Shown here: piece after piece, positions 9,849 to 44,069 of the stretch | Layout of the letters: every line of letters begins with the position of its first letter | How positions within the stretch are numbered: the stretch's first letter is position 1 | Source: a virus | Lineage: Duplodnaviria > Caudoviricetes | Reading direction: 5' to 3' (one strand) | Length of the DNA stretch: 44,069 nt | IMG/VR virus record: IMGVR_UViG_3300015050_000731 | Location: 1-44,069 of that record | Notes under the pieces: model-generated | Databases searched by the model: none | What the model was told of the DNA's origin: nothing | The model's input: the letters and a program-made list of their open reading frames with translations, nothing else | Position numbers and translations under genes: made by a program

Positions 9849-10055
9849 ATGAAACACTTGTTGCGATTCGCGAAGTGGCTCTTGTGGGCAATACCGAGCC
9901 TCGTCCTGTGGGTGCTCGGTAGTATGTTGTGCCTGCTGTGGGACCACGACAGACGAGGGGCGGGGCTCGTTCATCCAGCAGCGCAAGGTGTGTGGCGCGT
10001 CACCTGCCCTCGCTGCGGCATGGGCTGCGACAGCGCGGAAAAGGATCGGAAGTGA
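9849..10055 (+). CDS. Small membrane protein with CxxC
   Basis: Hydrophobic N-terminus, CPRC. Confidence 0.6.
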   Translation: MKHLLRFAKWLLWAIPSLVLWVLGSMLCLLWDHDRRGAGLVHPAAQGVWRVTCPRCGMGCDSAEKDRK

Positions 10056-10645
10056 AGCCCAGCAAACCCGTATCTCGTCGTGGCGACTACACCTTCGAGC
10101 AGATCGACCACTCAGTCGGAGCCGCGCTCATCCGTGAGCACCACTACGCGCGCGGGTGCTCGAAGACGGGGGTGATGTACGGGATGCTGAAGGACGGCAG
10201 GCTCGTCGGGGTCGCCCAGTGGCTTCCCCCCACGAAAGTCTGCGCGCAGTCGGTGCTCCCCGACTTCGACTTGTGGAAGCGTGTAATCTCGCTCACGCGG
10301 CTCGTAGTACTCCCAGGGGAGCCGCAGAACGCTGCGTCAATGCTCATCGCGGCCTCGCTCAAATGGTTGCCAACGCTGCGTACCGACATCGGGCAGCGCA
10401 AATGGTTCGCGGCGGTCACCTACGCAGACGACTCACAGGGACACACAGGCGGGATCTACAAGGCGACGAACTGGATCTACAAAGGCAAGACGAAGCCGTA
10501 CCCCCGCTGGGTGACGCGCTACGGCGCGCAAGTGTCCACAAAGGCTGGCCCTAAGACGCGGACGGCGACGGAGATGCGGGCACTGGGGTACGAGATCGCG
10601 GGTCACTTCTGGAAGCACAAGTACGTTTTCTTCTTCCCGGCTTGA
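10052..10645 (+). CDS. mom: Mom-family DNA adenine modification protein (GNAT fold)
   Basis: EHHY, LTRLVV, PQNAASMLI, TYAD..QGHTGGIYKATNWIY.G match the Mu Mom family pattern. Confidence 0.8.
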   Translation: MKPSKPVSRRGDYTFEQIDHSVGAALIREHHYARGCSKTGVMYGMLKDGRLVGVAQWLPPTKVCAQSVLPDFDLWKRVISLTRLVVLPGEPQNAASMLIAASLKWLPTLRTDIGQRKWFAAVTYADDSQGHTGGIYKATNWIYKGKTKPYPRWVTRYGAQVSTKAGPKTRTATEMRALGYEIAGHFWKHKYVFFFPA

Positions 10646-12296: not shown

Positions 12297-14248
12297 CCAC
12301 CCTCCTGGCGTTCGACCTCGAAACGCACCTGATCCAGCCTGGGCTTCTCACGCCTCCCATCGTCTGCGGCTCGTTCGCTCGTCGGACCACGAACCAAGAG
12401 GTGGATGGCTACTTGCTGTCCGATCCGCTGGTCCACGTCGAGGGGGCACTGCGCCAGCCTGAGTTGGTCTTCTGCGGAGCGAACATCGCCTACGACTGGG
12501 GTTGCGTGCTGGCCGAGCGCCCCGACCTCCTGCCCCTCGTCTGGAAAGCCTACGAGGAAAAGCGCGTGTTCGACGTGCTCATTGCGGGCACGCTCGACGC
12601 CATTTACGGTGGTCGCCTCCGCTCGGAAGACGGGCCGACCGAGTTGTTCATGCGGAACGGCAAGAAGATTTCGAGCGGGCGCTACTCGCTTCAGAGCGTG
12701 ACCGAGGACTACCTTGGGCGCTCCGACGCGAAGAAGAACGACCGCTGGCGCAAGTCCTACGCCCTCCTCGACGGCATCCCGCTGAACCAGTGGCCCGAGG
12801 ACGCGCGGCAGTACCCGGTGGACGACGCCGTGAATACCCTCCAGGTCGCGGAGGAGCAGCTCAAAGTCTGCAACAACCTCCACAACCTCCCCGCACAGGC
12901 CCACGCTGCCCTCTGCGCGCACTTGGGCTCCGTCTGGGGTGTGCGGGTGGACGAGGGCCGCATCAACGCGCTGAAGGCCAACGTGGACGCGAACCTTGCT
13001 CGAATGCAGGAGTTTGCGAGCGCGCACAAGCTGATGAAGCAGGGCGGTACGAAGAAGGCCCCGAAGCTGACGAAGGACACGAAGTACATCAAGGAACTGG
13101 TCTTCAAGGCTTACGACGGGCTCCCCCCGACGACGGACGGCGGGGACATCTCCATGTCCCGCGAGACGCTCGAAGACTCAGGCGACGCCACGCTGGAGGC
13201 GTTCGCGGAGATGTCGAAGTGGGAGAAGCTGCGGACCTACGCGGACGACCTCGCCGCGGCGGCACCGACGCCAATGAACGTTTCGTGCAACATCCTGCTG
13301 TCAACGGGGCGCTCGTCGTACTCAGGGCTCATCCAGCTCATCCCACGCAAGGGCAACGTGCGCGAGTGCTTCGCGGCTCGACCCCGTACGGTGTGGTCGT
13401 CGGTGGACTACGCGGCAATCGAGATGAGCACGCTTGCCCAGGTGTGCCTCAACGCCTTGGGGTACAGCAAGCTCGCGGACGCGATCAACGACGACGTGGA
13501 CCCGCACAGCCTCTTCGCGGCCAACATGACAGGCGTGCCCTACGAGGACTTCCTGAAGCGCAAGAAGGATCCCGTCGAGGCGGGTATGCGGCAGGCAGCG
13601 AAAGCCGCCAATTTCGGATTTCCCGGCATGATGGGCGCTGCGAAGTTCGTCATTGCGAAGAAGCGCGAGCACGAGAAAGTCTGCGAGTGGACGCACCGGG
13701 ACGGTCGCTGCGGGGAGCAGAAGGTCCGCCAGTGGAAAGGCCGCGACCTCGACGCGCCCCTGTGCCAGCGGTGCATCGAAGAGGCTGAGAAGCTCCGCAG
13801 CTACTACCTGACTCAGTGGCCTGAAATGCCCGCGTACTTCCGCTGGGTGTCCGCGGAGGGCGACACGGTGACGCAGTTGGGCTCCGAGCGCGTGCGCGGG
13901 GGGTGTAGTGGCCCCGCGGCGGCGAACACGAGGTTCCAGGGTCTGGCCGCGGACGGTGCGAAGTCGGCGCTCGTGAAGCTGACGGAGGAGATGTACCTCG
14001 ACTCGTCGAGTCCGCTGTACGGGAGCCGCTTGATGGTTTTCGCGCACGACGAGACGATTCTCGAAATCCCCGAAGAGAAGGCCCACGAAGCTGCCCATAG
14101 GCAGGCGGAAATCATGGTGAGCGAGATGCGGAGGTTCGTCCCCGACGTGAAGGTGAAGGCCGAACCGGCGCTCATGCGCTACTGGAGCAAGAGCGTGGAA
14201 ACGAAGTACGACGCGAACGGTCATCTGGTCGTGTGGGAGGCAGCGTGA
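12293..14248 (+). CDS. polA: DNA polymerase family A with 3'-5' exonuclease
   Basis: ExoI FDLET, ExoII NIAYD, TGRSS, motif A DYAAIE, motif B RQAAKAANFG, motif C AHDE. Confidence 0.95.
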   Translation: MTTLLAFDLETHLIQPGLLTPPIVCGSFARRTTNQEVDGYLLSDPLVHVEGALRQPELVFCGANIAYDWGCVLAERPDLLPLVWKAYEEKRVFDVLIAGTLDAIYGGRLRSEDGPTELFMRNGKKISSGRYSLQSVTEDYLGRSDAKKNDRWRKSYALLDGIPLNQWPEDARQYPVDDAVNTLQVAEEQLKVCNNLHNLPAQAHAALCAHLGSVWGVRVDEGRINALKANVDANLARMQEFASAHKLMKQGGTKKAPKLTKDTKYIKELVFKAYDGLPPTTDGGDISMSRETLEDSGDATLEAFAEMSKWEKLRTYADDLAAAAPTPMNVSCNILLSTGRSSYSGLIQLIPRKGNVRECFAARPRTVWSSVDYAAIEMSTLAQVCLNALGYSKLADAINDDVDPHSLFAANMTGVPYEDFLKRKKDPVEAGMRQAAKAANFGFPGMMGAAKFVIAKKREHEKVCEWTHRDGRCGEQKVRQWKGRDLDAPLCQRCIEEAEKLRSYYLTQWPEMPAYFRWVSAEGDTVTQLGSERVRGGCSGPAAANTRFQGLAADGAKSALVKLTEEMYLDSSSPLYGSRLMVFAHDETILEIPEEKAHEAAHRQAEIMVSEMRRFVPDVKVKAEPALMRYWSKSVETKYDANGHLVVWEAA

Positions 14249-15372
14249 ATGTGGATCCTTCCGAAATCAATTGCATCAGCCTATTCAGCGGAGCCGCAGG
14301 ACTCGACATGGGAGTTGAGCTTGCGGGCATCAGCCGCCGAGTCGTTGTTTTCGTGGAGAGGGAAGCCTACGCCTGCGAAGTCTTGGCTTCGCGCATGGAA
14401 AAAGGCGACATGGCTCCAGCGCCTATTTGGACGGATGTGTCCACCTTCGACGGACGCCCATTTCGCGGCGTGGTGGAGTGCATCACTGGCGGATTCCCCT
14501 GCCAGGACATCAGCGTTGCAGGCAGGCAAGCGGGCATCGGTGGTGAACGAAGCGGGCTCTGGAAGCAGTACCTCCGAATTGTCTCCGAAGTTCAGCCTCG
14601 ACTGGTCATCATTGAAAACGTCGCCGCGCTCCGCACGAACGGCCTCGAAGTCGTCCTTGCCGACCTTGCCTCGCTCGGGTTCGATGCAGAATGGGGTACT
14701 TACCGAGCGTCCGATGCTGGCGCGACGCACCAACGCGACCGACTCTTCATCGTGGCCCACCACCACCACCACACAGGACTCCATCGGGAGCGGCTCACAC
14801 GGGTACGGTCCAGTTTCCAAGAGCACGGGGAGGCCGAGGTCGGAGGGTACGACGCTGACGGACAGAGCGGTGAGGATCTGGCAAACGCCAAGGGCGAGCG
14901 ACGGGGAGAAAGGTGGCCCGAATCAGACGCTCAAAGGCGTCCCGAGCTTGGTGAATCAGGCGCGGCGCAGTTGGCCTACAGCGTCGGTGGGGGACGGGAG
15001 CAAGTACGCGGTGGGCGCGAACCCCAACTCTCAGGCTGCGAATTCACCGCACCCGAACGCGCTCGGAGTGAGCCGTGGGTGGCCGACACCCACGGCTCAC
15101 GACGGGAAGGATACGGGGGCTCCGACCGAGTTTTTGAGGCACTCGCCGGGGCTCCTCGCGACGGCCTTGAGTGGCCCCCCGGCCCTGACGACCTCGAAAC
15201 CTGGCGCCAGGTCATCGAGCAACGGGCGGACCTTGAACCCTCGCTTTGTCGAGTGGCTGATGGGCTGGCCCATCGGGTGGACCGACTGCGACTCACAGGT
15301 AACGGAGTGGTTCCTCGTCAAGCCGCTGAAGCTCTGAGGCAACTGCTTGACAGAGTTTCAATACAGTATTAG
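14245..15372 (+). CDS. DNA cytosine-5 methyltransferase, catalytic (alpha-like) chain lacking motif IX
   Basis: SLFSGAAG (I), GGFPCQD (IV), IENV (VI), HQRDRLF (VIII), LTGNGVVP (X). Confidence 0.9.
   Translation: MNVDPSEINCISLFSGAAGLDMGVELAGISRRVVVFVEREAYACEVLASRMEKGDMAPAPIWTDVSTFDGRPFRGVVECITGGFPCQDISVAGRQAGIGGERSGLWKQYLRIVSEVQPRLVIIENVAALRTNGLEVVLADLASLGFDAEWGTYRASDAGATHQRDRLFIVAHHHHHTGLHRERLTRVRSSFQEHGEAEVGGYDADGQSGEDLANAKGERRGERWPESDAQRRPELGESGAAQLAYSVGGGREQVRGGREPQLSGCEFTAPERARSEPWVADTHGSRREGYGGSDRVFEALAGAPRDGLEWPPGPDDLETWRQVIEQRADLEPSLCRVADGLAHRVDRLRLTGNGVVPRQAAEALRQLLDRVSIQY
14249..15337 (+). CDS. Nested +1-frame ORF: methyltransferase beta-like chain with motif IX
   Basis: 362 aa open frame inside the MTase; ends LNPRFVEWLMGWPIGWT; four W(P/Q)T..D repeats; GGGAGG 8 nt upstream. 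Confidence 0.75.
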   Translation: MWILPKSIASAYSAEPQDSTWELSLRASAAESLFSWRGKPTPAKSWLRAWKKATWLQRLFGRMCPPSTDAHFAAWWSASLADSPARTSALQAGKRASVVNEAGSGSSTSELSPKFSLDWSSLKTSPRSARTASKSSLPTLPRSGSMQNGVLTERPMLARRTNATDSSSWPTTTTTQDSIGSGSHGYGPVSKSTGRPRSEGTTLTDRAVRIWQTPRASDGEKGGPNQTLKGVPSLVNQARRSWPTASVGDGSKYAVGANPNSQAANSPHPNALGVSRGWPTPTAHDGKDTGAPTEFLRHSPGLLATALSGPPALTTSKPGARSSSNGRTLNPRFVEWLMGWPIGWTDCDSQVTEWFLVKPLKL

Positions 15373-16600: not shown

Positions 16601-17405
16601 ACAGCTTTCCGTTCACCACGCAGCGCCCATTCACGATGGGCACGGGCTGAACGTGAACGATGCCGGACGCGGGCTCCATCCAGAAGACGCCGAAGCCATG
16701 CACCCAATCGCTGGCCTTGGCCTCGTGGATGTAGCCCGCGGCCTTTTCCGCGTCACCCAGCCAGCCCAACATCGCCGCGAGGTACGGAGGGCCGTCGAAC
16801 CGCCCCGTCACTTCGTACGCCATTCGGTGGGTGTGCCCGATGACGACTGAGCCGCCGAACGCCTTGGCGCTCGTCCGATGCGCGTTCATCCCCGCAGAAC
16901 CTGTATCATGTGTAAGGTTGAGCTTCCCAATTTTGGCGCTCTTGCGGTACGGGGTCCACTTCCAGCCCCGGTCGTGCAAGCCCAGAAGCTCCTGCCACTT
17001 GACCGCGTGGAACATCGCCGGGGCGCGCTCCATCAGGTAGCGGTCAAGCCGAAACTCGTGGTTCCCCTCGACGTAAATCTTGTTTTCCGCGCCCATCAGG
17101 TCGAGCTGGTCGAGGCACGCCTTCACCCCGTCCACCTCCTGGCCGAACGAGACGACGCCGGGTTTCGTAGCCGGGTGCGCGGAGAGCGTCTCGCCGTCAG
17201 CGAAGTCGCCCAGAATGGCGATGTGCTTCGGCTTGAGCCACTGCCCCACGCGGAGCATGACGTTCCACGCCTTTTCGTTGTGGTTGGGGATGTGGCAGTC
17301 GGGGATTAAAAGCCCGACTGCGAGATCACCAGCGTCACGGGCACTGCCACCGCTGCCCCTACCACCACGCCCAGCACCAGCCCTACGAGAACGGGAGTCG
17401 CCCAC
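16593..17405 (-). CDS. Calcineurin-like metallophosphoesterase
   Basis: DCH, GDFAD, GNHE, GHTH motifs; start uncertain. Confidence 0.88.
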   Translation of the reverse strand: MGDSRSRRAGAGRGGRGSGGSARDAGDLAVGLLIPDCHIPNHNEKAWNVMLRVGQWLKPKHIAILGDFADGETLSAHPATKPGVVSFGQEVDGVKACLDQLDLMGAENKIYVEGNHEFRLDRYLMERAPAMFHAVKWQELLGLHDRGWKWTPYRKSAKIGKLNLTHDTGSAGMNAHRTSAKAFGGSVVIGHTHRMAYEVTGRFDGPPYLAAMLGWLGDAEKAAGYIHEAKASDWVHGFGVFWMEPASGIVHVQPVPIVNGRCVVNGKLFT

Positions 17406-17611
17406 GATGGTTCCGCCTTGTGCAGCCGCTCTGCGCCCTGGAGCCGCTTCATCTCCGCGTCCACGGCTGCAAAGGCTGGCTCGTTGAACAGGTAACTCCC
17501 ATTCGGGAGCGCCACGACCTTCGGAGCGTCGGGCAAAACAACGCCCCCGTCCTGAGCCCTCGCCTCACATACGACAAGCGCGGACAGCAGGACGAGGGCA
17601 CGGCCCTTCAC
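17306..17611 (-). CDS. Exported protein with C-terminal TM; spanin candidate
   Basis: Signal-like N-terminus, C-terminal hydrophobic helix, in lysis cluster. Confidence 0.5.
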   Translation of the reverse strand: MKGRALVLLSALVVCEARAQDGGVVLPDAPKVVALPNGSYLFNEPAFAAVDAEMKRLQGAERLHKAEPSWATPVLVGLVLGVVVGAAVAVPVTLVISQSGF

Positions 17612-17875: not shown

Positions 17876-18391
17876 TCACCCTGCCTTTCTGTGAACACCC
17901 TTCCACACTTCTTTCAAGCGAGTCAACGTATCCCCGCCCAGTTCCTGTGCCTTTTCCCACGCGAGGTGCAGCGGGAGCATGTCGGTTGCGGTGACGTATC
18001 CGGGGTAGCCGATGTGCGGAAAATCGTCGTACCCCTGGCCCGAGTGCAGACCGCGAGCGGTGGCCTCTTCGATGAGTACCCGGTACGCCTCTTTCTGCCA
18101 GTCGGGCTGGATGCCGGGGAGCAACTGGTTCTTGTCGAGCACGAAGTCCATCGCGAGCCCGAAGTTGTGCGCGCTCTGCCCGCCCTTGGCGTTGGTCACC
18201 TTGGGGCCGGGGACGGTGCGCCCCTTCGCCCACAAGGCCATTTGCGTCCCGTAGGTGTCGTACCCGCGGGTGGCGTGGTAGGCGAAGCCGCGCTCGTTGC
18301 AGGCTGCGATGACGTCGAACATGACCAAGCGGAAATCAGGCTCGATCAGGTCCAGGTCGATGCGTCTGAAGTTACCTGTGGGCATCGACAT
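17876..18391 (-). CDS. Endolysin, M15-family (L-Ala-D-Glu-type) peptidase
   Basis: Q.ALWAKGRT.PG.KVTNAKGGQSAHNFGLAMD...DFPH. Confidence 0.92.
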   Translation of the reverse strand: MSMPTGNFRRIDLDLIEPDFRLVMFDVIAACNERGFAYHATRGYDTYGTQMALWAKGRTVPGPKVTNAKGGQSAHNFGLAMDFVLDKNQLLPGIQPDWQKEAYRVLIEEATARGLHSGQGYDDFPHIGYPGYVTATDMLPLHLAWEKAQELGGDTLTRLKEVWKGVHRKAG

Positions 18392-18674
18392 AAACCCCCG
18401 CCTGCTTGTCGGTGAAGTCGCGCTTGCCGTCCGCGGCAGTGTCCGCGATGACGAAGCCCTCGACGGCGTGGCGACGGGCCTTCTCCGCACTCTCCGAGGA
18501 GTCCTTCTGAGCGCGCGAGTAGGCCCAGCCCACCTCCGCATACTTCTTTCCGAGGGAGTCGCGCGCTGCCATTTCCGACTCGATTTTCCGGTCGTTCTTT
18601 CGGGACAGGGACACGGCCACGGAGGCGAGGGAGGCCAGCAAGGCCAGTGCGGACATCAGGATCTCGGCGCTCAT
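18372..18674 (-). CDS. Single-TM membrane protein, holin/antiholin-like
   Basis: MSAEILMSALALLASLASVAV; ATGA overlap; directly before the endolysin. Confidence 0.55.
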   Translation of the reverse strand: MSAEILMSALALLASLASVAVSLSRKNDRKIESEMAARDSLGKKYAEVGWAYSRAQKDSSESAEKARRHAVEGFVIADTAADGKRDFTDKQAGVYVDAHR

Positions 18675-19357
18675 CGCTCGCACCAGTCCACGCTGACGGC
18701 CAGCACCCACGTCCCGGCGGCGTCGAAGACTACCGGGTTGCGGATCGCCAGAAGCTGCCCCGGCGCCAACTCGATGGGGTGGTCGCCCAGCGCGGAGTCG
18801 GACACCACCGTCCAGTCGCTCGTGGCACCTGCCGCGCCCACGGCCCCGAGGTGCATCGTCGAGAACTCCTGCGCCTCGTAGGTGATGCCCGTCACCGTCA
18901 GCGCGCCCGTGGTGCTGATGGATGCGAAGCCGCCCTCGCTGGTCTGTACGGCGCTGTTCGCCGCGCTCGCTGAGTCCTTGGGCGGAATGGCCGTCGAAAG
19001 CGTGGTGCCGCCCGACGTTGCCGCGCCCGCCCCCCGGTACAGGGCGAGCCGCCGCGTGGCGCTGATGGGCACCGTGTACGCTACCTGCGTGATGTACCTG
19101 AGCATCACCTTCGTCACGACCGCCGACTTGCCCGCTGCGGGACTGGTCCGCATTGCGAACACCGTCGCATTGGCCGCGAGCGCGGCGGCGACGATGCCGG
19201 TGCTCGATGACAGCGAGTAGCAGTTGGCCGTGGTCGGCCACAGCGACGTGCGGAGCGTCTTGTAGGTGGGGTCCACGGTGGCGAGGTCGGCACCTGCGCC
19301 CGACTTGAGCGGGATGCCTTGTGCGAGTGCGAGTGATGCGACGAGTGTGAGCAGCAT
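18671..19357 (-). CDS. Signal-peptide-bearing beta-rich virion-like protein
   Basis: MLLTLVASLALAQ; A/T/G rich; 2 Cys; GGAGG RBS. Confidence 0.7.
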   Translation of the reverse strand: MLLTLVASLALAQGIPLKSGAGADLATVDPTYKTLRTSLWPTTANCYSLSSSTGIVAAALAANATVFAMRTSPAAGKSAVVTKVMLRYITQVAYTVPISATRRLALYRGAGAATSGGTTLSTAIPPKDSASAANSAVQTSEGGFASISTTGALTVTGITYEAQEFSTMHLGAVGAAGATSDWTVVSDSALGDHPIELAPGQLLAIRNPVVFDAAGTWVLAVSVDWCER

Positions 19358-19360
19358 GTT

Positions 19361-20053
19361 TCAGCCTCCAGTGCAGTGAACTGAGACGGTACCCTCAAGG
19401 CCCGCCAGATTGAGTACGGAGACGGTGAAGCCAACCCCAGGAACAAGGTCGCTGACGGTCACACGGGCACTGGCGAGACTGATGACTTCCACGGTGAGCC
19501 CTGCGTCATCTGTGCCCAGCACTTGGCACATAGCATGGCTTGCCGAGGTGATCCACGTCGCCACCACGGTCTGGCTGAAAAGGCCCGCCCCCGTGAGCAC
19601 AACCTGCGCGTCAGCCCGGTTGACACTCCACGGTGGGCCTCCCCCGCCTCCGCCTCCGCTGGGGGTTGAGCAGGTGAGCACGCCAGCGGGCGAGATGTCG
19701 GTGACGTACTGCCCCACAGCGCACGCAGCGGGGTCGTGGTCGAAGGTGGCCGCATAGACTGCCGCGTCGGCAGAGTAGGCAGTCTGCGCCACCTGAGCGG
19801 TGATCGCTGCGTCGGCCATGTACGCCTCGCCCACCTTGCCGCCGTCGTAGCTTGAGCCGCCACCGCCGCTCGACGCCGCCGACAGGTACAGCACACCCCC
19901 GTCAACGCCACAGGTCATGTTCGTGCGGCAGTCGATGACGTACTGGCGCTGGCGAGTCGGCACACGCACGCCGTCCTGCCGCGTCTCGATGGGCGTCACG
20001 TTGAGGTTCATCGTCTGCGCGAGAATGAGCGAATGAATGAGTGAAAGCCTCAT
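19361..20053 (-). CDS. Signal-peptide-bearing fibre-like protein
   Basis: MRLSLIHSLILAQ; AxxAxxA run; CAVGQYVTDISPAGVLTC; Gly linkers; 6 Cys. Confidence 0.7.
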   Translation of the reverse strand: MRLSLIHSLILAQTMNLNVTPIETRQDGVRVPTRQRQYVIDCRTNMTCGVDGGVLYLSAASSGGGGSSYDGGKVGEAYMADAAITAQVAQTAYSADAAVYAATFDHDPAACAVGQYVTDISPAGVLTCSTPSGGGGGGGPPWSVNRADAQVVLTGAGLFSQTVVATWITSASHAMCQVLGTDDAGLTVEVISLASARVTVSDLVPGVGFTVSVLNLAGLEGTVSVHCTGG

Positions 20054-20406
20054 GGCGTGGATGCCTTCCGAGTCGCCCCGATTTGGACGGTGCCGCCCGC
20101 GCCCGACATGGACCCGCGGACCTCCAGCTCGTCCGTCCCCTCAACGTCAAGGTCGGCCATCACGGAGAGGAGAGCATTCACGGAGAAGAAATCAGGCACG
20201 GTGCTGGGTGCCCATGCGTCCATGCCCGCCTTGCGCCGGTAGACGGTGCCCGTGAAGGTCTGCGCGGCGTCCATGTTGAAGACCTGCACGGTGACGCGCT
20301 TGGCACCCTTGAGTTGGTCGCGCGTGAAGGAGCACAGCGTCGTCTCCGTGGGGGCCACGACCACGAAGACAGGCGCTACGAGTGGGCTGGAATGGGTGAC
20401 GCTCAT
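20050..20406 (-). CDS. Beta-rich hypothetical protein, no signal peptide
   Basis: ATG 20406 in ATGA overlap. Confidence 0.65.
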   Translation of the reverse strand: MSVTHSSPLVAPVFVVVAPTETTLCSFTRDQLKGAKRVTVQVFNMDAAQTFTGTVYRRKAGMDAWAPSTVPDFFSVNALLSVMADLDVEGTDELEVRGSMSGAGGTVQIGATRKASTP

Positions 20407-20567
20407 GGGGCACCGAAGAAGATGCCGACAAGCCGTACCACGACCCCGCAGGGGCCTTGGTAGGGCAGCGGCACGAGCCGACACAGCACACCAAGGCCGA
20501 CACCGGCCAGGAGCATGATGACGCGCCGGTTACGGATGCGCTTGCGCGGAGGTTTCGACTCGCCCAC
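20403..20567 (-). CDS. Small membrane protein (MGESKPPRKRIRNRRVIMLLAG..., 54 aa), not in ORF track
   Basis: Basic N-terminus, two hydrophobic stretches, stop overlaps next ATG. Confidence 0.55.
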   Translation of the reverse strand: MGESKPPRKRIRNRRVIMLLAGVGLGVLCRLVPLPYQGPCGVVVRLVGIFFGAP

Positions 20568-20670
20568 AGCTCAACCCCTTTGCGCCCGTGGAGATACCCT
20601 CCGCGGTGACGATCAGCAGCCCTGCAAGCACAACCAGTACGTCGTAGGCGATTTCCTTGAGCGTTTCCAT
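20530..20670 (-). CDS. Small membrane peptide (METLKEIAYDVLVVLAGLLIV..., 46 aa), not in ORF track
   Basis: GGAGA RBS, one TM segment. Confidence 0.5.
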   Translation of the reverse strand: METLKEIAYDVLVVLAGLLIVTAEGISTGAKGLSCGRVETSAQAHP

Positions 20671-20694
20671 TGTATTTCTCCGGTTGGCGCGGGT

Positions 20695-21501
20695 TTACAG
20701 CCACTCCTGGGGCACGTCACCGGCCACCACGGAGCACTCGACCGGGACGCACTCAGCCCCCGCCGCGTACTGCGAGGGGCCGACGTTGAACCCGCGCCAC
20801 CTGTATCCGCCGTCCATGAGCCCGTACGGTCCGCCGAACTGGCAATCCACCGGGCTCGACTCGTCCCACCCGCCGTCGCTGCGCCACCCGTTCGGGATGC
20901 GGCACGGTGAGTCGATCATCTGCAAGCGGTTGAGCCGCCCACAGAACGCCGTACCGTCGCCCGCGTCGTAGGTGTTGCAGCGCACCAGCTCGCACGACAG
21001 CAGGTCGTACTGGAGCGAGTCGTCCACGCCGTCCTCGCCGCCGTCATCCGCGCCCGCGTCGAGGTCGATGCCCACGAGGTTCTGGCGCAGGCTCGGCACC
21101 ACCACCTCCGCGTTCTTGCCGACCGTCATCACCTCCGTCCCGCCGTCTTCCGTCGTCAACAGCACCTCGCTCGTGAACGGACCCAGCGAGTCGCCGTTCG
21201 GTTTGAGACAGTTGCCCGTGGACCCGCCGTCAAGCACCTCGCTCCCGAAGCATCTCGCCACGCGGGCGACCCGCGCGTAGCTCTGCTTGGGCCGCAGGAG
21301 CCCCGGCTGGGCCAGCTCGATGCGGCGCTTGGTCTGCCGCGTCAGCCGCTCGGGGCAGATGGAGACGACCGGCTGCCCGTCTGCAATTCCCGCGTCCCTC
21401 AGCTCAAGCATCGAGCGCGTTGCAGGCTGTGGGGTGAGCAGCAGAAAACCGCCAGCGAGGACGCCGACAGCGACGAGCATTGCGGAGAGTCGGGAGTTCA
21501 T
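20695..21501 (-). CDS. Exported or membrane-anchored Cys-rich protein with DGG/DAG motifs
   Basis: Hydrophobic N-terminus, 10 Cys, TGATG coupling. Confidence 0.7.
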   Translation of the reverse strand: MNSRLSAMLVAVGVLAGGFLLLTPQPATRSMLELRDAGIADGQPVVSICPERLTRQTKRRIELAQPGLLRPKQSYARVARVARCFGSEVLDGGSTGNCLKPNGDSLGPFTSEVLLTTEDGGTEVMTVGKNAEVVVPSLRQNLVGIDLDAGADDGGEDGVDDSLQYDLLSCELVRCNTYDAGDGTAFCGRLNRLQMIDSPCRIPNGWRSDGGWDESSPVDCQFGGPYGLMDGGYRWRGFNVGPSQYAAGAECVPVECSVVAGDVPQEWL

Positions 21502-22811
21502 CAGCGGCACCGGGTGGGGTCGGGAGAGAGGCAGATGCGGGAAACGATGCCGTCAGCGGGGGCTGTGGTGCTGGCTGCGCCGAGAGCACCGGGAAGCACG
21601 CTGACGATGGTGAAGGCCGAGGTGAGCCCCCCTGCGCTCGTGGAGATGAGCACGCCGTCGCGGTAGTTGGAGATGGTGCTCGCCGCGCCTGCGCCCGAGT
21701 ACGAGCACGCCTGTCGGTACACCTGCCCCGCGACGTAGGCCGCGATGACCGTACCAACCGAGCGACTGCCGGAAGTCGAGAAGATGTCGCACTGCTGAAC
21801 GTTCGTGTTTGCCCGGTACAACTGCGTCCGGTTGGCTGCATCGGCCACGAGGTTCGCGCCAGCCGCCCACACCCCGCCGCCGTTGCCGCTCGGGTGTTGG
21901 ACGGTGGCCGCCCATGAAACGCCTGCGGCCGTCGATAGCGAGAGCCCATCGAACGATGCCGACTCCACCACCCGCGTCACCGCCGCGCTCGTCGTGGGGG
22001 CGATGCTCGTGCGGTAGGTGCGCGCCTCGACGTTGCAGCCGCCCCAGATGACCGTCCCCGTGTCGCTCGTGGCCGCGCCGTTGAGCACCTGCACTGCGAT
22101 GGCGACGCCGCTCGACGAGGCATCTGCAACTTCAACGATGCTCCACGTCGTCGAGGACAGGCCGGTGATGTTCGCCGCCGTGCCGTCGAGGCTGATGCGC
22201 GCACTCGTCAGCGTCCCGGCCTTGACGTAGCAACTCAGCAGGTACGCCGTCGCCGCCGTGACGGTGATGGTCTGCGAGCGCCCCTCGTAGGCCGCGCCGT
22301 CGTTGTCGTCAAACTGCACCGCGCTCGACGCGAGAGCGCCCGCGAAGGGTGATGTCTGCGAGCCGGTGAGTGTCGGCGTGCCGACGTCGGTCCACAGCAC
22401 GTCTGCGTACTCGATGAAGCGAGGGAGGAGGTTCCCGCCTGCACTCTCAACCAGCAGCCCGAGCACGCCGTTGGAGTCGTACTCGACGCGAGGCTGGCCG
22501 CTGCTCAACGTCACGAGGTCGCCGTTGGCGATGCCGGTAGTGATGAGCCCGCCCGTGGCGGTCTTGGTGCAGGTCGCGGTGCTGGCACGCGCGAACGTCA
22601 GCGCCTCGCCGCGCGCTCCCGTGGGCGGGGTGGTGGAACACGCGCCGAAGGTGCCTGCGCCGCTGGCCGGGAAGGCCTCGAAGAAGGCGTAACTCATCAC
22701 GCCGCCGCGAGCCCCTTCGTAGCGTCCAAAAGGCACACGCTCGACGCGGAGTACGCGCGAATCGGACGCGCCAGGAGCCTGCGCCAGCGTGAGGAGGATG
22801 AGCGCGAGCAT
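21501..22811 (-). CDS. Head-spike/tail-fibre-like protein with signal peptide
   Basis: TFARASTAT..PRVEYD..GLLVE..NLL..WGG.NVEA..TS.APTT.AAVTR fibre-family motifs; MLALILLTLAQ; 8 Cys. Confidence 0.75.
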   Translation of the reverse strand: MLALILLTLAQAPGASDSRVLRVERVPFGRYEGARGGVMSYAFFEAFPASGAGTFGACSTTPPTGARGEALTFARASTATCTKTATGGLITTGIANGDLVTLSSGQPRVEYDSNGVLGLLVESAGGNLLPRFIEYADVLWTDVGTPTLTGSQTSPFAGALASSAVQFDDNDGAAYEGRSQTITVTAATAYLLSCYVKAGTLTSARISLDGTAANITGLSSTTWSIVEVADASSSGVAIAVQVLNGAATSDTGTVIWGGCNVEARTYRTSIAPTTSAAVTRVVESASFDGLSLSTAAGVSWAATVQHPSGNGGGVWAAGANLVADAANRTQLYRANTNVQQCDIFSTSGSRSVGTVIAAYVAGQVYRQACSYSGAGAASTISNYRDGVLISTSAGGLTSAFTIVSVLPGALGAASTTAPADGIVSRICLSPDPTRCR

Positions 22812-23185
22812 CAGAAAATGGGCTTCTTTCGCGGGGTGACCATGAACTTGCACGAGCCCGCACTCGTGGCCGCGAGGACGCTGATGTGCAGGTCATTCTT
22901 GTCCAGAATGAGCATCACCTTGTCCTTGTTGTTCGTGAAGTCCACCAGCTCCGACGTCGAGACAGCCGCCGAGACGGTGCCGCCGAAGGCAGACGTGGTG
23001 CTCGAAACGTACACGTCCGTCGTACACTGCATGAGCACCTGCGAGCCGCGGGTCCACGTCGCGGAGCCCGTGGTACACGACGCGGTAGTCGCCGCCGCGC
23101 CTGTGGCAGTCGTCAGGGTGCAGACCACGGGCTCGGACGCGAGCGCGGCGGTCGAAAGAAGTGCTGCGAGAAGTGCGTATTTCAT
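22811..23185 (-). CDS. Small signal-peptide protein, spike-base-like
   Basis: MKYALLAALLSTAALA/SEP; 4 Cys; directly upstream of the fibre gene. Confidence 0.7.
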   Translation of the reverse strand: MKYALLAALLSTAALASEPVVCTLTTATGAAATTASCTTGSATWTRGSQVLMQCTTDVYVSSTTSAFGGTVSAAVSTSELVDFTNNKDKVMLILDKNDLHISVLAATSAGSCKFMVTPRKKPIF

Positions 23186-33088: not shown

Positions 33089-33550
33089 TTACGGCTCCGT
33101 GTCGAAGGTGATGCCTTCGAGGGAAAAGTAGGTGGTGCCACCATACCCGTACGCAATCACGCCGTCCGCGTAGATAGACGCGCCGCCAGCACCTGCGCTC
33201 CCCGTAGTGGGGAACAACTTGCGCTTGGCGGGTCGATACCCCACAGGAAGTACAGCGATGGTGACGACCACACCCGCGGAGCGCGCAACGATGCCGCGCA
33301 GCTCAACGCGCCCCAGCGGCGTCTTTCGGTACTGCGCCACCTGAAGCGCCGGGTCCGCGTAGTCCGCCCAGTTCGACGCGCTGACGTAGTTGAGCGGCTT
33401 CCACTTCTCCTGCTGCACGAAGGGTTGGAGGTATTTGATGACCGCGATCAGCGAGGTTGCGATTGCGTCGATTGCGCGTTGTACGAGCGGGTCACCAACC
33501 CGCGCGTGCGCTGCTTCAGGGAGTGGGGTATTGCGGTTCTGTCGCGGCAC
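33089..33550 (-). CDS. Small tail protein with receptor-binding-like C-terminal domain
   Basis: QYRK..GRVELRG..IAVLPVGYRP motif. Confidence 0.6.
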   Translation of the reverse strand: MPRQNRNTPLPEAAHARVGDPLVQRAIDAIATSLIAVIKYLQPFVQQEKWKPLNYVSASNWADYADPALQVAQYRKTPLGRVELRGIVARSAGVVVTIAVLPVGYRPAKRKLFPTTGSAGAGGASIYADGVIAYGYGGTTYFSLEGITFDTEP

Positions 33551-34671: not shown

Positions 34672-35934
34672 TTAGGTCGGCAGGGTCGCGACCATGTTCG
34701 CCGCGGGCTTGTGGCAGAGCATGTTGCCGTAGAACGACATGCGACCCTCGAAGCGGTCGGCCTGGTACTCGCGGGCCATGCCGCCGTCTCCACCAGCGTC
34801 GCCCTTGTTCACGAGGTCGCCGAGGTGCTTCAGCTCCCAGGTGTTCAGGGTGAGGATGCGGGCGCTGCCCACGGGGGCGTTGCGGTCGGCGTACACCTTG
34901 ACGGTGCCGTTCGGGCCGCGCAGACGGATGGACTCGAAGCCGATTTCACCAACCTGCGTGTACTCCGCGTCCACGCGCGAGCCGAGCGCGAGCTTCAGGT
35001 TCTTCTCGTCGGTGAACGACGTGAAGATGTGGCTGGGGTCGCCGTCCTCGCGCGCGAGAGCGGCGAGAGCGGTGATGTACCCCTCTTCCGGCGAGAGCGA
35101 GGCGATGTCGAGGCGCTGACCGGAGAGCCGGGTCGCATCCACCGAACGGTCCACACCGAAGAACGACTCAGACGCGGCAGGCGCGGTGATGGGGTTCCAC
35201 GCCTCGAAGCCCGCGAGCTTGACGTTCATCGCGTTCGTGGTGATCGCGGCCACCTGCCGGTCACCCTTGATGAACAGCCAGCAGTTCGCGGCGATGGTGT
35301 CGGGGTTGGTGGTGATGGTGAACGTGCCCGCCGAGCGGTTCACGGTCTGCACCACGACGCCACCACCGGAGTTGAGGAGGATGGTGTTGACCGTGGTGGT
35401 CGAGGCCACGATCTCCATGCCGACTTCGATCTGGGTGATCGCCTCACCGACCGTCACGGTGAACGGGCCAGCGCCGCTGACCGCGGTGACCTGACCGAGC
35501 GTACCGTTGCCCGAGCCGAACACATCGCGCCCAAAGTCGTTCTTCAGGGTCTGGAGGGTGCCGTCCACGAGCTGGGTCAGCCCCTTGACGAACGAGGCGC
35601 GGTCACCGTTCGCGGCCAGGAGCAGCTCCTGCTCGATGGTGTACATCGCGTAGTTCTTCACGCGGGGGATGGTGAAGTTCACGTCGCGGTTGAAGCCGCT
35701 GTCCGTACCGGCCACACCGTTGATGCCCGCGCGACCCTGCGCGGTGGCGAAGCTGGTGCTGCGCGCCAGCGAGTTGCCGTAGGTCAGCGCGTGGATGAGC
35801 GAGCGCCCGTTGAACCCGCCGCTCTTGGGGATGAGCGCGAAGGCGGGGTTCTTGTCGTACACCGCGTTCTGGAGAGCGCGGGACGAGTAGACGAACTTCA
35901 GGATCTTGTCAGCAGTCGAAATCGTAGCAGCCAT
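34672..35934 (-). CDS. Major capsid protein
   Basis: 420 aa after scaffold; strong codon bias; DVFGSGNG, YGNMLC.KP. Confidence 0.85.
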   Translation of the reverse strand: MAATISTADKILKFVYSSRALQNAVYDKNPAFALIPKSGGFNGRSLIHALTYGNSLARSTSFATAQGRAGINGVAGTDSGFNRDVNFTIPRVKNYAMYTIEQELLLAANGDRASFVKGLTQLVDGTLQTLKNDFGRDVFGSGNGTLGQVTAVSGAGPFTVTVGEAITQIEVGMEIVASTTTVNTILLNSGGGVVVQTVNRSAGTFTITTNPDTIAANCWLFIKGDRQVAAITTNAMNVKLAGFEAWNPITAPAASESFFGVDRSVDATRLSGQRLDIASLSPEEGYITALAALAREDGDPSHIFTSFTDEKNLKLALGSRVDAEYTQVGEIGFESIRLRGPNGTVKVYADRNAPVGSARILTLNTWELKHLGDLVNKGDAGGDGGMAREYQADRFEGRMSFYGNMLCHKPAANMVATLPT

Positions 35935-43908: not shown

Positions 43909-44069
43909 GCCCCTTCGAAATCCTGTCGGCTGTGGGGGCGCTGGCCCTGATTGTGGGCGTGATTGAGGGCGAGCGGGTGCCCACGTCCCTCCGCAAGGTC
44001 GGCGGCTTGTGGCACTGGCGTATCGGCGTCGTGGGCGGGGCCTTCTATGTCGCGAAGGGCGGCGGCAAG
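43905..44069 (+). CDS. Small membrane protein spanning the circular join (stop at 124-126)
   Basis: MSPFEILSAVGALALIVGVI...KGGGK; GTGA overlaps on both sides once circularised. Confidence 0.6.
   Translation, partial: MSPFEILSAVGALALIVGVIEGERVPTSLRKVGGLWHWRIGVVGGAFYVAKGGGK
43947..44069. repeat. Terminal direct repeat, right copy
   Basis: Identical to 1-123. Confidence 0.95.

Follow-up and report, generated by a model that had tools for sequence, protein, structure and literature searches.

A late-operon block in a podovirus, likely of a myxobacterium, encodes candidate exported and disulfide-paired head spikes and decorations

The IMG/VR virus record IMGVR_UViG_3300015050_000731, analysed over its full 44,069 nucleotides (the window), contains a late-operon block at 18671..23185 in which five genes begin with hydrophobic leaders. 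The block proteins are likely to be head spikes and decorations rather than tail fibres. Comparison of relatives indicates that the leader proteins are very probably exported, with cysteines that very probably pair. The whole path proposed for them is export, oxidation in the periplasm and joining of the virion at lysis, and it is given a probability of about 0.6. The cassette is widespread and conserved; its types of part are known and the route of biogenesis is apparently new. Tailed phages are commonly regarded as assembling their particles in the cytoplasm alone. The phage is a podovirus and its host is likely a myxobacterium.

Genes were called with our own script. The block is comprised of two mobile units on the minus strand, A-B-C with two tiny membrane open reading frames (ORFs), and F-G-H with the membrane protein I. 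Gene A (22811..23185, 124 amino acids) is a candidate head-spike base with a canonical Sec-type leader (Lys, hydrophobic core, AxA) and four cysteines. Gene B (21501..22811, 436 amino acids) encodes the putative head-spike fibre, with a short leader ending in Ala-Gln, a variable post-leader peptide, CBM-like and LamG/ConA lectin-like domains and eight cysteines. Gene C (20695..21501, 268 amino acids) is phage-specific, with a signal-anchor-like N-terminal helix, an acidic domain with 10 cysteines and eight D[AG]G motifs. The tiny ORFs D (20530..20670, 46 amino acids, hydrophobic) and E (20403..20567, 54 amino acids, basic then hydrophobic) are kept in several relatives. Gene F (20050..20406, 118 amino acids) is leaderless with one cysteine and is a candidate cytoplasmic docking base for G. 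Gene G (19361..20053, 230 amino acids) is modular and fibre-like, with a short leader ending in Ala-Gln and six cysteines. Gene H (18671..19357, 228 amino acids) is decoration-like, with a leader, a predicted jelly-roll fold and cysteines C46 and C226. Just outside the block, I (18372..18674, 100 amino acids) has an N-terminal membrane helix, a tail like that of LL-H holin and a conserved acidic loop.

An earlier note, made from the letters of the window, had described most of this. The five leader genes exist with the N-termini it gave, their cysteine counts are 4, 8, 10, 6 and 2, the four ejection-type proteins have no cysteine and both tiny ORFs are present. It had left out a sixth gene, the leaderless F. 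The coupling offsets of the leader starts are -4 for A and G, -1 for B and C and +3 for H, which has a GGAGG site. The leader starts of A, B, C, G and H are translationally coupled and the true starts therefore do not lie downstream of the leaders, the case that the earlier note had named as refuting it.

Leaders were called by our own hydrophobicity rule (not SignalP), which has some misses. Nineteen window late-operon proteins (plus-sense) were called leaderless and six leader-bearing (A, B, C, G, H and L101), so that leaders are concentrated in the block beyond chance. The same rule called 90 of 400 proteins in B-bearing loci and 3 of 462 in the loci of leaderless H relatives. The leader cut-off was passed by 115 of the 120 listed relatives of B (120 of 381 found), and the leaders of these 120 were short and Gln-ending in 57, canonical with K/R and AxA in 51 and of other types in 12. 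Because the relatives split between short Gln-ending and canonical leaders, the leader is read as a conserved trait whose sequence is swapped. A leader was present in 143 of the 150 listed relatives of A (of 681 found), a count biased by a profile that contained the leader. All A leaders seen were canonical, with a basic n-region, a hydrophobic core and small residues at -3/-1, and the A family profile weakly matched established signal peptides that are part of constructs in PDB (E 0.3-0.7). The cut-off was passed by 53 of 66 relatives of G. The short Gln-ending leaders of B, G and H were 7-17 residues long with Leu common at -3, and the residue preceding Gln was A, G, S or T in 59/59 G and 82/83 B leaders. 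Similarly short leaders were found on secreted-type proteins in 200 kb of host contig from an Archangium metagenome-assembled genome. The N-terminus of C is probably an uncleaved membrane anchor, because it has a basic start followed by 16-20 hydrophobic residues, with AxA in only 2/16.

The leaders could instead stay uncleaved and act as hydrophobic anchors, like the N-terminus of the RcGTA fibre, with assembly in the cytoplasm and cysteines that oxidise only after lysis. The leaders of B, G and H are very short, and in the available part of PMC7296036 residues 2-10 of the RcGTA fibre bind the base pentamer. Against this, orthologues (including P0295) swap short leaders for canonical K/R-hydrophobic-AxA ones, leaders are carried by four unrelated families, the A leaders are canonical and the B peptide that covaries with A lies behind the leader. 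Uncleaved anchors are thus very unlikely.

Even cysteine counts had been offered by the earlier note as a sign of disulfides. The counts are true but alone prove little, because the leaderless nozzle (13 cysteines) and portal (10 cysteines) are also cysteine-rich and five counts are all even by chance 1 time in 32. An even count as proof was rejected for this reason, and the pairing is shown only through relatives. Among the 120 listed relatives of B, columns 194/259 had cysteine at both positions in 109, at neither in 11 and at one in none, and columns 383/389 at both in 25, at neither in 95 and at one in none. Columns 60/102 had both in 34, neither in 85 and one in 1, and columns 341/369 had both in 17, neither in 97 and one in 6. 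In B-bearing loci the cysteine content was 2.68% in leader-called proteins compared to 0.70% in the others, and counts were even in 77/87 and 96/197, respectively. In G the count was even in 63/66 relatives, with C42 and C48 invariant in 51. The earlier note had proposed a comparison of homologues with and without leaders. For H both cysteines were present in 9/9 leader-bearing and 0/111 leaderless relatives (120 listed of 176). C46 and C226 of H are probably adjacent, since they belong to the first and last jelly-roll strands. Two distant leader-bearing H-like proteins use another cysteine pair. Export with disulfide folding, as claimed by the earlier note, is well supported by these relatives, in which leaders are kept and cysteines come in pairs.

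The D[AG]G motif was six-fold enriched in leader-bearing phage proteins of the B loci (5.6 vs 0.95 per 1000) and occurred mostly in C and G. It is possibly a modification site or a calcium-binding turn. A general host secretion motif was rejected (0.39 vs 0.99 per 1000, 24 leader-bearing host proteins).

The identity of the A-B-C unit was indicated by B. A profile of 74 B sequences had one match in PDB, the RcGTA head-spike fibre Rcc01080 (E 5.9e-12, approximately 190 profile positions), and by this match B is a homologue of that fibre. Fifty-four of the 74 members matched PHROG 5939 'tail protein', and no Pfam or PHROG match was found with the single window B protein. The B model (predicted local distance difference test score 89) folds like CBM22 plus LamG and like phage ConA-like proteins. 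In profile searches, with profiles built from these same loci, 27 of 29 loci had an A-like gene immediately ahead of B, and in 22 of 29 B was followed by C, with four of the seven misses cut at a contig end. The nearest Atlas clusters to A were viral proteins of approximately 107 amino acids, and PRD1 P5 spike N (0.79) was a tentative Atlas lead. Gene C gave no Pfam, PHROG or Atlas match, was present in 4 of 401 Myxococcota genomes and was found in no plasmids. No known family was found for A, C, F or G in Pfam, PHROG and profile scans. A-type domains fused to long fibre-like C-terminal parts were observed in P0374, P0384, P0417, P0433 and P0436; all have leaders and these parts are not B homologues.

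The RcGTA head spike consists of the base Rcc01079 and the fibre Rcc01080 (PDB 6TB9) and, in the available parts of PMC7296036 and PMC10218006, resembles the A-B pair in that a small gene precedes the fibre gene and the N-terminal peptide of the fibre pairs with the small protein, by structure there and by covariation here. The RcGTA base is a small jelly-roll pentamer on the five-fold vertices of the capsid, and A may correspond to it, as judged from adjacency (27/29) and indirect covariation. The RcGTA fibre binds host capsule polysaccharide, while B is known here by predicted lectin-like folds. The window system differs from RcGTA in the leaders and paired cysteines on both A and B, the extra LamG domain of B and the third, anchored protein C that follows. 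The uncleaved Leu-Gly anchor repeat of the RcGTA fibre (residues 2-10) was not found in the B relatives.

The earlier note had called the block proteins spike- or fibre-like and placed them where podoviruses keep tail fibres. The spike-like character stood, and head spikes and decorations are indicated instead of tail fibres, because of the homology of B, the occurrence of both units in head operons, a separate leaderless fibre gene in the window and a T7-type fibre in relatives; the tail-fibre reading was rejected on the same grounds. The separate gene (33089..33550, minus strand) is short, fibre-like, leaderless and cysteine-free, lies between adaptor and nozzle, matched a PHROG minor tail protein (E 2.6e-5) and served as an internal control. 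In relatives a leaderless fibre of T7 type also accompanies the cassette. No block protein matched Pfam at E 0.01, the T7 gp17-type tail-docking domain PF03906 included, and the separate leaderless fibre of a relative matched PF03906 weakly.

The position of the units also pointed to the head. A-B-C directly follows a capsid gene in two loci (L109/L095). In seven of the 15 loci with F-G (L004, L116-L119, L132, L159), the unit is embedded in or adjoins the genes for terminase, portal, scaffold and capsid, and it is remote from the endolysin wherever that gene is on the contig. Every A cluster nests within one capsid group. In Mantel tests on the 21 loci with all parts, A similarity was correlated with capsid similarity (r 0.43, p 0.0002). 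The correlation of A with the B post-leader peptide was 0.27 given capsid, and that of the peptide with capsid was 0.05 given A. The B core tracked neither A nor capsid (-0.07 with capsid). The post-leader peptides are Arg-rich or Gly-Pro-Ile and lie behind interchangeable leaders. Row L077 of the B tree was read in an incorrect frame and L075 forms a long branch; L077 was excluded from the Mantel tests. By analogy, the covariation could reflect a chain from capsid to base to fibre N-terminus such as the available part of PMC7296036 describes for RcGTA.

In the F-G-H unit, F was followed by G in 15/15 distinct loci (17 rows, two of them duplicates), five of which came from searches with G. For F itself, neither PDB nor PHROG gave a family, and it showed no likeness to A. 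Because the leaderless F is invariably tied to the exported G, this pair is the best hint that products of cytoplasm and periplasm meet. The H model is a jelly roll. Its best VIA rows were phage cement proteins (Z 7.8, root-mean-square deviation 3.0-3.7, 113-129 aligned), a Z that is not above the noise level of the tool (none >= 8) and was rated a possibly common arrangement. The best Foldseek match was to small-virus capsids (E 1e-3). The cement jelly rolls of KHP40 (7dou), GP4 (8h89) and Pam1 (7eel) appear to share the fold of the H model at 10-13% identity, with a score that C1q, the capsids of small viruses and spore appendage proteins reach as well. H differs from them in its leader and end-to-end cysteine pair. 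Leaderless H relatives occurred in 49 further viral loci with GC contents of 38-71% and neighbours that were mostly structural-looking by eye. In relatives the H slot is filled by other leader-bearing proteins of 400-470 amino acids without known family (L053:13312-14529, L132:936-2315, L157:2048-3448, L070:11589-12860), and it appears to be an interchangeable exported module.

Export could also serve the cell rather than the particle. The proteins would then stay off particles. An infected cell or lysogen would display or release them to serve as adhesins, receptor masks or decoys, and C would tether them to the membrane. In favour of this, the N-terminus of C resembles an anchor, C always accompanies A-B, and the cassette moves between capsid types and is also found in prophages. 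According to the available part of PMC10769870, the MAT proteins of Bdellovibrio are phage-fibre-like, carry signal peptides and are shown on the cell surface. From the same part, MAT fibres differ in being host-encoded, displayed on the cell surface and built with a conserved domain of approximately 130 amino acids, often with an S74 chaperone; the block is phage-encoded, and neither the domain nor the chaperone was detected in it by Pfam scan. Display on the cell also fits poorly with the late-operon coupling, the insertion into head operons, the following of capsid type by A and the leaderless F as invariant partner of exported G, and no lipobox or outer-membrane route was seen. A structural annotation in Cellulophaga phage phi10:1 (GenBank KC821618) argues against it as well and is a possible precedent for leader-bearing virion parts. 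Four consecutive late genes before the lysis genes, gp091-gp094, have classic Sec leaders, with Gln right after the predicted cut in three of the four, and are marked in GenBank as 'structural protein, MS/MS' (annotation only). Phage phi10:1 differs in being a Bacteroidota phage of siphovirus type with these genes in a tail-end position. Display on the cell is considered unlikely.

A role in lysis was also weighed, in which periplasmic lectins and an anchored cysteine-rich protein would help to breach the myxobacterial envelope. Endolysin and membrane genes adjoin the cassette in most loci, I weakly resembles LL-H holins and the C anchor is rich in Gly/Ala (22-50%). Gly/Ala-rich anchors recall signal-anchor-release domains. 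In Pfam and PHROG scans no enzyme domain was found in A, B, C, G or H, the homology is to virion appendages and the units leave the lysis genes for head operons, all of which make a lysis role most improbable. Gene I follows F at a distance of up to 3.2 kb in 13 of the 15 loci. Three of 12 members of its family matched LL-H holin PF09682 (E 2e-4 to 4e-4, under the curated cut-off) and the window protein did not match. The I proteins have a conserved EF-hand-like acidic loop, and where F-G-H has moved to a head operon, at a distance from endolysins, they have moved along with it.

The genes and their coupling, the leaders, the paired variation of cysteines, the homology of B, the synteny and the covariation are observed; from them we infer cleavage, export and disulfides, each binding step and what C, D, E, F and I do. 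In the mechanism so obtained, proteins A, B, G and H would be exported by the host Sec system and folded with disulfides in the periplasm. The exported parts would dock on finished heads once the inner membrane fails and lysis mixes the compartments. The base that attaches to the capsid would be A. The post-leader peptide of B would secure B to A, and the lectin-like domains of B would meet polysaccharide on the host surface, as those of the RcGTA fibre do. C would sit in the inner membrane and retain the pool of exported proteins or act as their chaperone. In the other unit F, which lacks a leader, would attach to heads in the cytoplasm and take up G after its export, and H would be a further decoration. 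The probable advantage is outer parts that are oxidised and resist proteases, which would help among myxobacteria that secrete proteases. Late binding to finished particles is known for T4 Hoc and Soc, phage L Dec and the P22 tailspike. In rotavirus the protein VP7 forms the outer layer of a non-enveloped particle, is disulfide-folded in a secretory compartment and is added late. Rotavirus is a eukaryotic virus budding into the endoplasmic reticulum, and the analogy is one of logic, with no homology claimed. A more elaborate form is possible but doubtful. It would be a two-compartment assembly line of Myxococcota phages, with heads and F cytoplasmic, A, B, G and H periplasmic, and C (facing outward) and I (facing inward) staging the meeting at lysis with D and E, possibly with host modification at D[AG]G.

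A number of observations weigh against assembly of exported parts onto the virion. Joining of the particle is read from the genes, and addition to particles is favoured over display on the cell. The window leaders of B, G and H have 10-12 residues (median 10 and range 7-12 in G), and Leu at -3, found in 35 of 59 G leaders, is atypical for signal peptidase I. In the available part of PMC7296036 the RcGTA fibre, too, has a hydrophobic N-terminus, and there it serves as an anchor in contact with the base pentamer. The A profile had no match in PDB, Rcc01079 included. The split of H by leader and cysteines is one change on a quick tree (52 rows, support 23), which could run in either direction. 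Gene order predicts the same covariation, with A nearest the structural genes and next to the 5' end of B. The cassette adjoins lysis genes in most loci and occurs with at least five capsid groups, including GP7, Phage_capsid_4 and HK97 types. The phi10:1 proteins gp091-gp094 were unrelated to the block in scans, have 0-2 cysteines and may have co-purified. No cultured phage was found among the five records with B relatives, all of which are uncultured.

A literature search found no description of exported virion spikes or decorations, in a scope outside which lay supplements with virion proteome tables and most subscription papers. The available parts of a Tunturi paper (PMC11924767) and of a rumen-phage paper (PMC5723332) hold nothing on exported virion parts. 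The HFTV1 turret was rejected as an export precedent, as signal peptides and disulfides are not mentioned in the available part of bioRxiv 2024.12.09.627619. If the proposed path is true, virion maturation gains an envelope branch, host Sec and Dsb determine infectivity and lysis timing affects particle quality. Late-operon genes with signal peptides, usually filed as morons, would then need re-reading. The work adds Myxococcota phages, the partner pairs A-B and F-G, and a cross-compartment pair that is testable with purified proteins.

At 44 kb the window spans a whole virus record, which carries direct terminal repeats. Positions 1-123 equal 43947-44069, and this 123-base overlap marks the record as a complete circular assembly. 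The minus strand encodes terminase, portal, capsid, SU10-type adaptor, nozzle, four ejection-type proteins and an M15 endolysin, and because of this gene set the phage is classed as a podovirus. The major capsid protein (34672..35934, minus strand; phrog_14242, E 4e-7) is the candidate docking surface, and no cultured phage relative was found with it as query. B relatives lay in five genome loci. Three are on contigs labelled Myxococcaceae, Archangium and Archangiaceae, and the remaining two are on 2.8-kb and 43-kb contigs in other bins. One locus is a prophage inside a 524-kb host contig with housekeeping genes around it. The likely myxobacterial host is read from these labels and this prophage.

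The M15-type endolysin is at 17876..18391 (minus strand; PHROG endolysin, E 1e-17; Pfam VanY). After the lysis genes, at 17306-17611 (minus strand), is a protein of 101 amino acids that begins with a leader of cleavable type and has a membrane helix at its C-terminus. Its layout is repeated in L056, L058, L062, L066 and L072, with no Pfam match and no clear lipobox, and it is a candidate non-lipoprotein spanin-like protein. A leader-bearing gene of 174 amino acids with four cysteines was present in a relative (L054:1698-2222) between a nozzle-type gene and the ejection genes. On the plus strand the window encodes a Mom-family DNA modification protein at 10052-10645 and a C5 cytosine methylase at 14233-15372.

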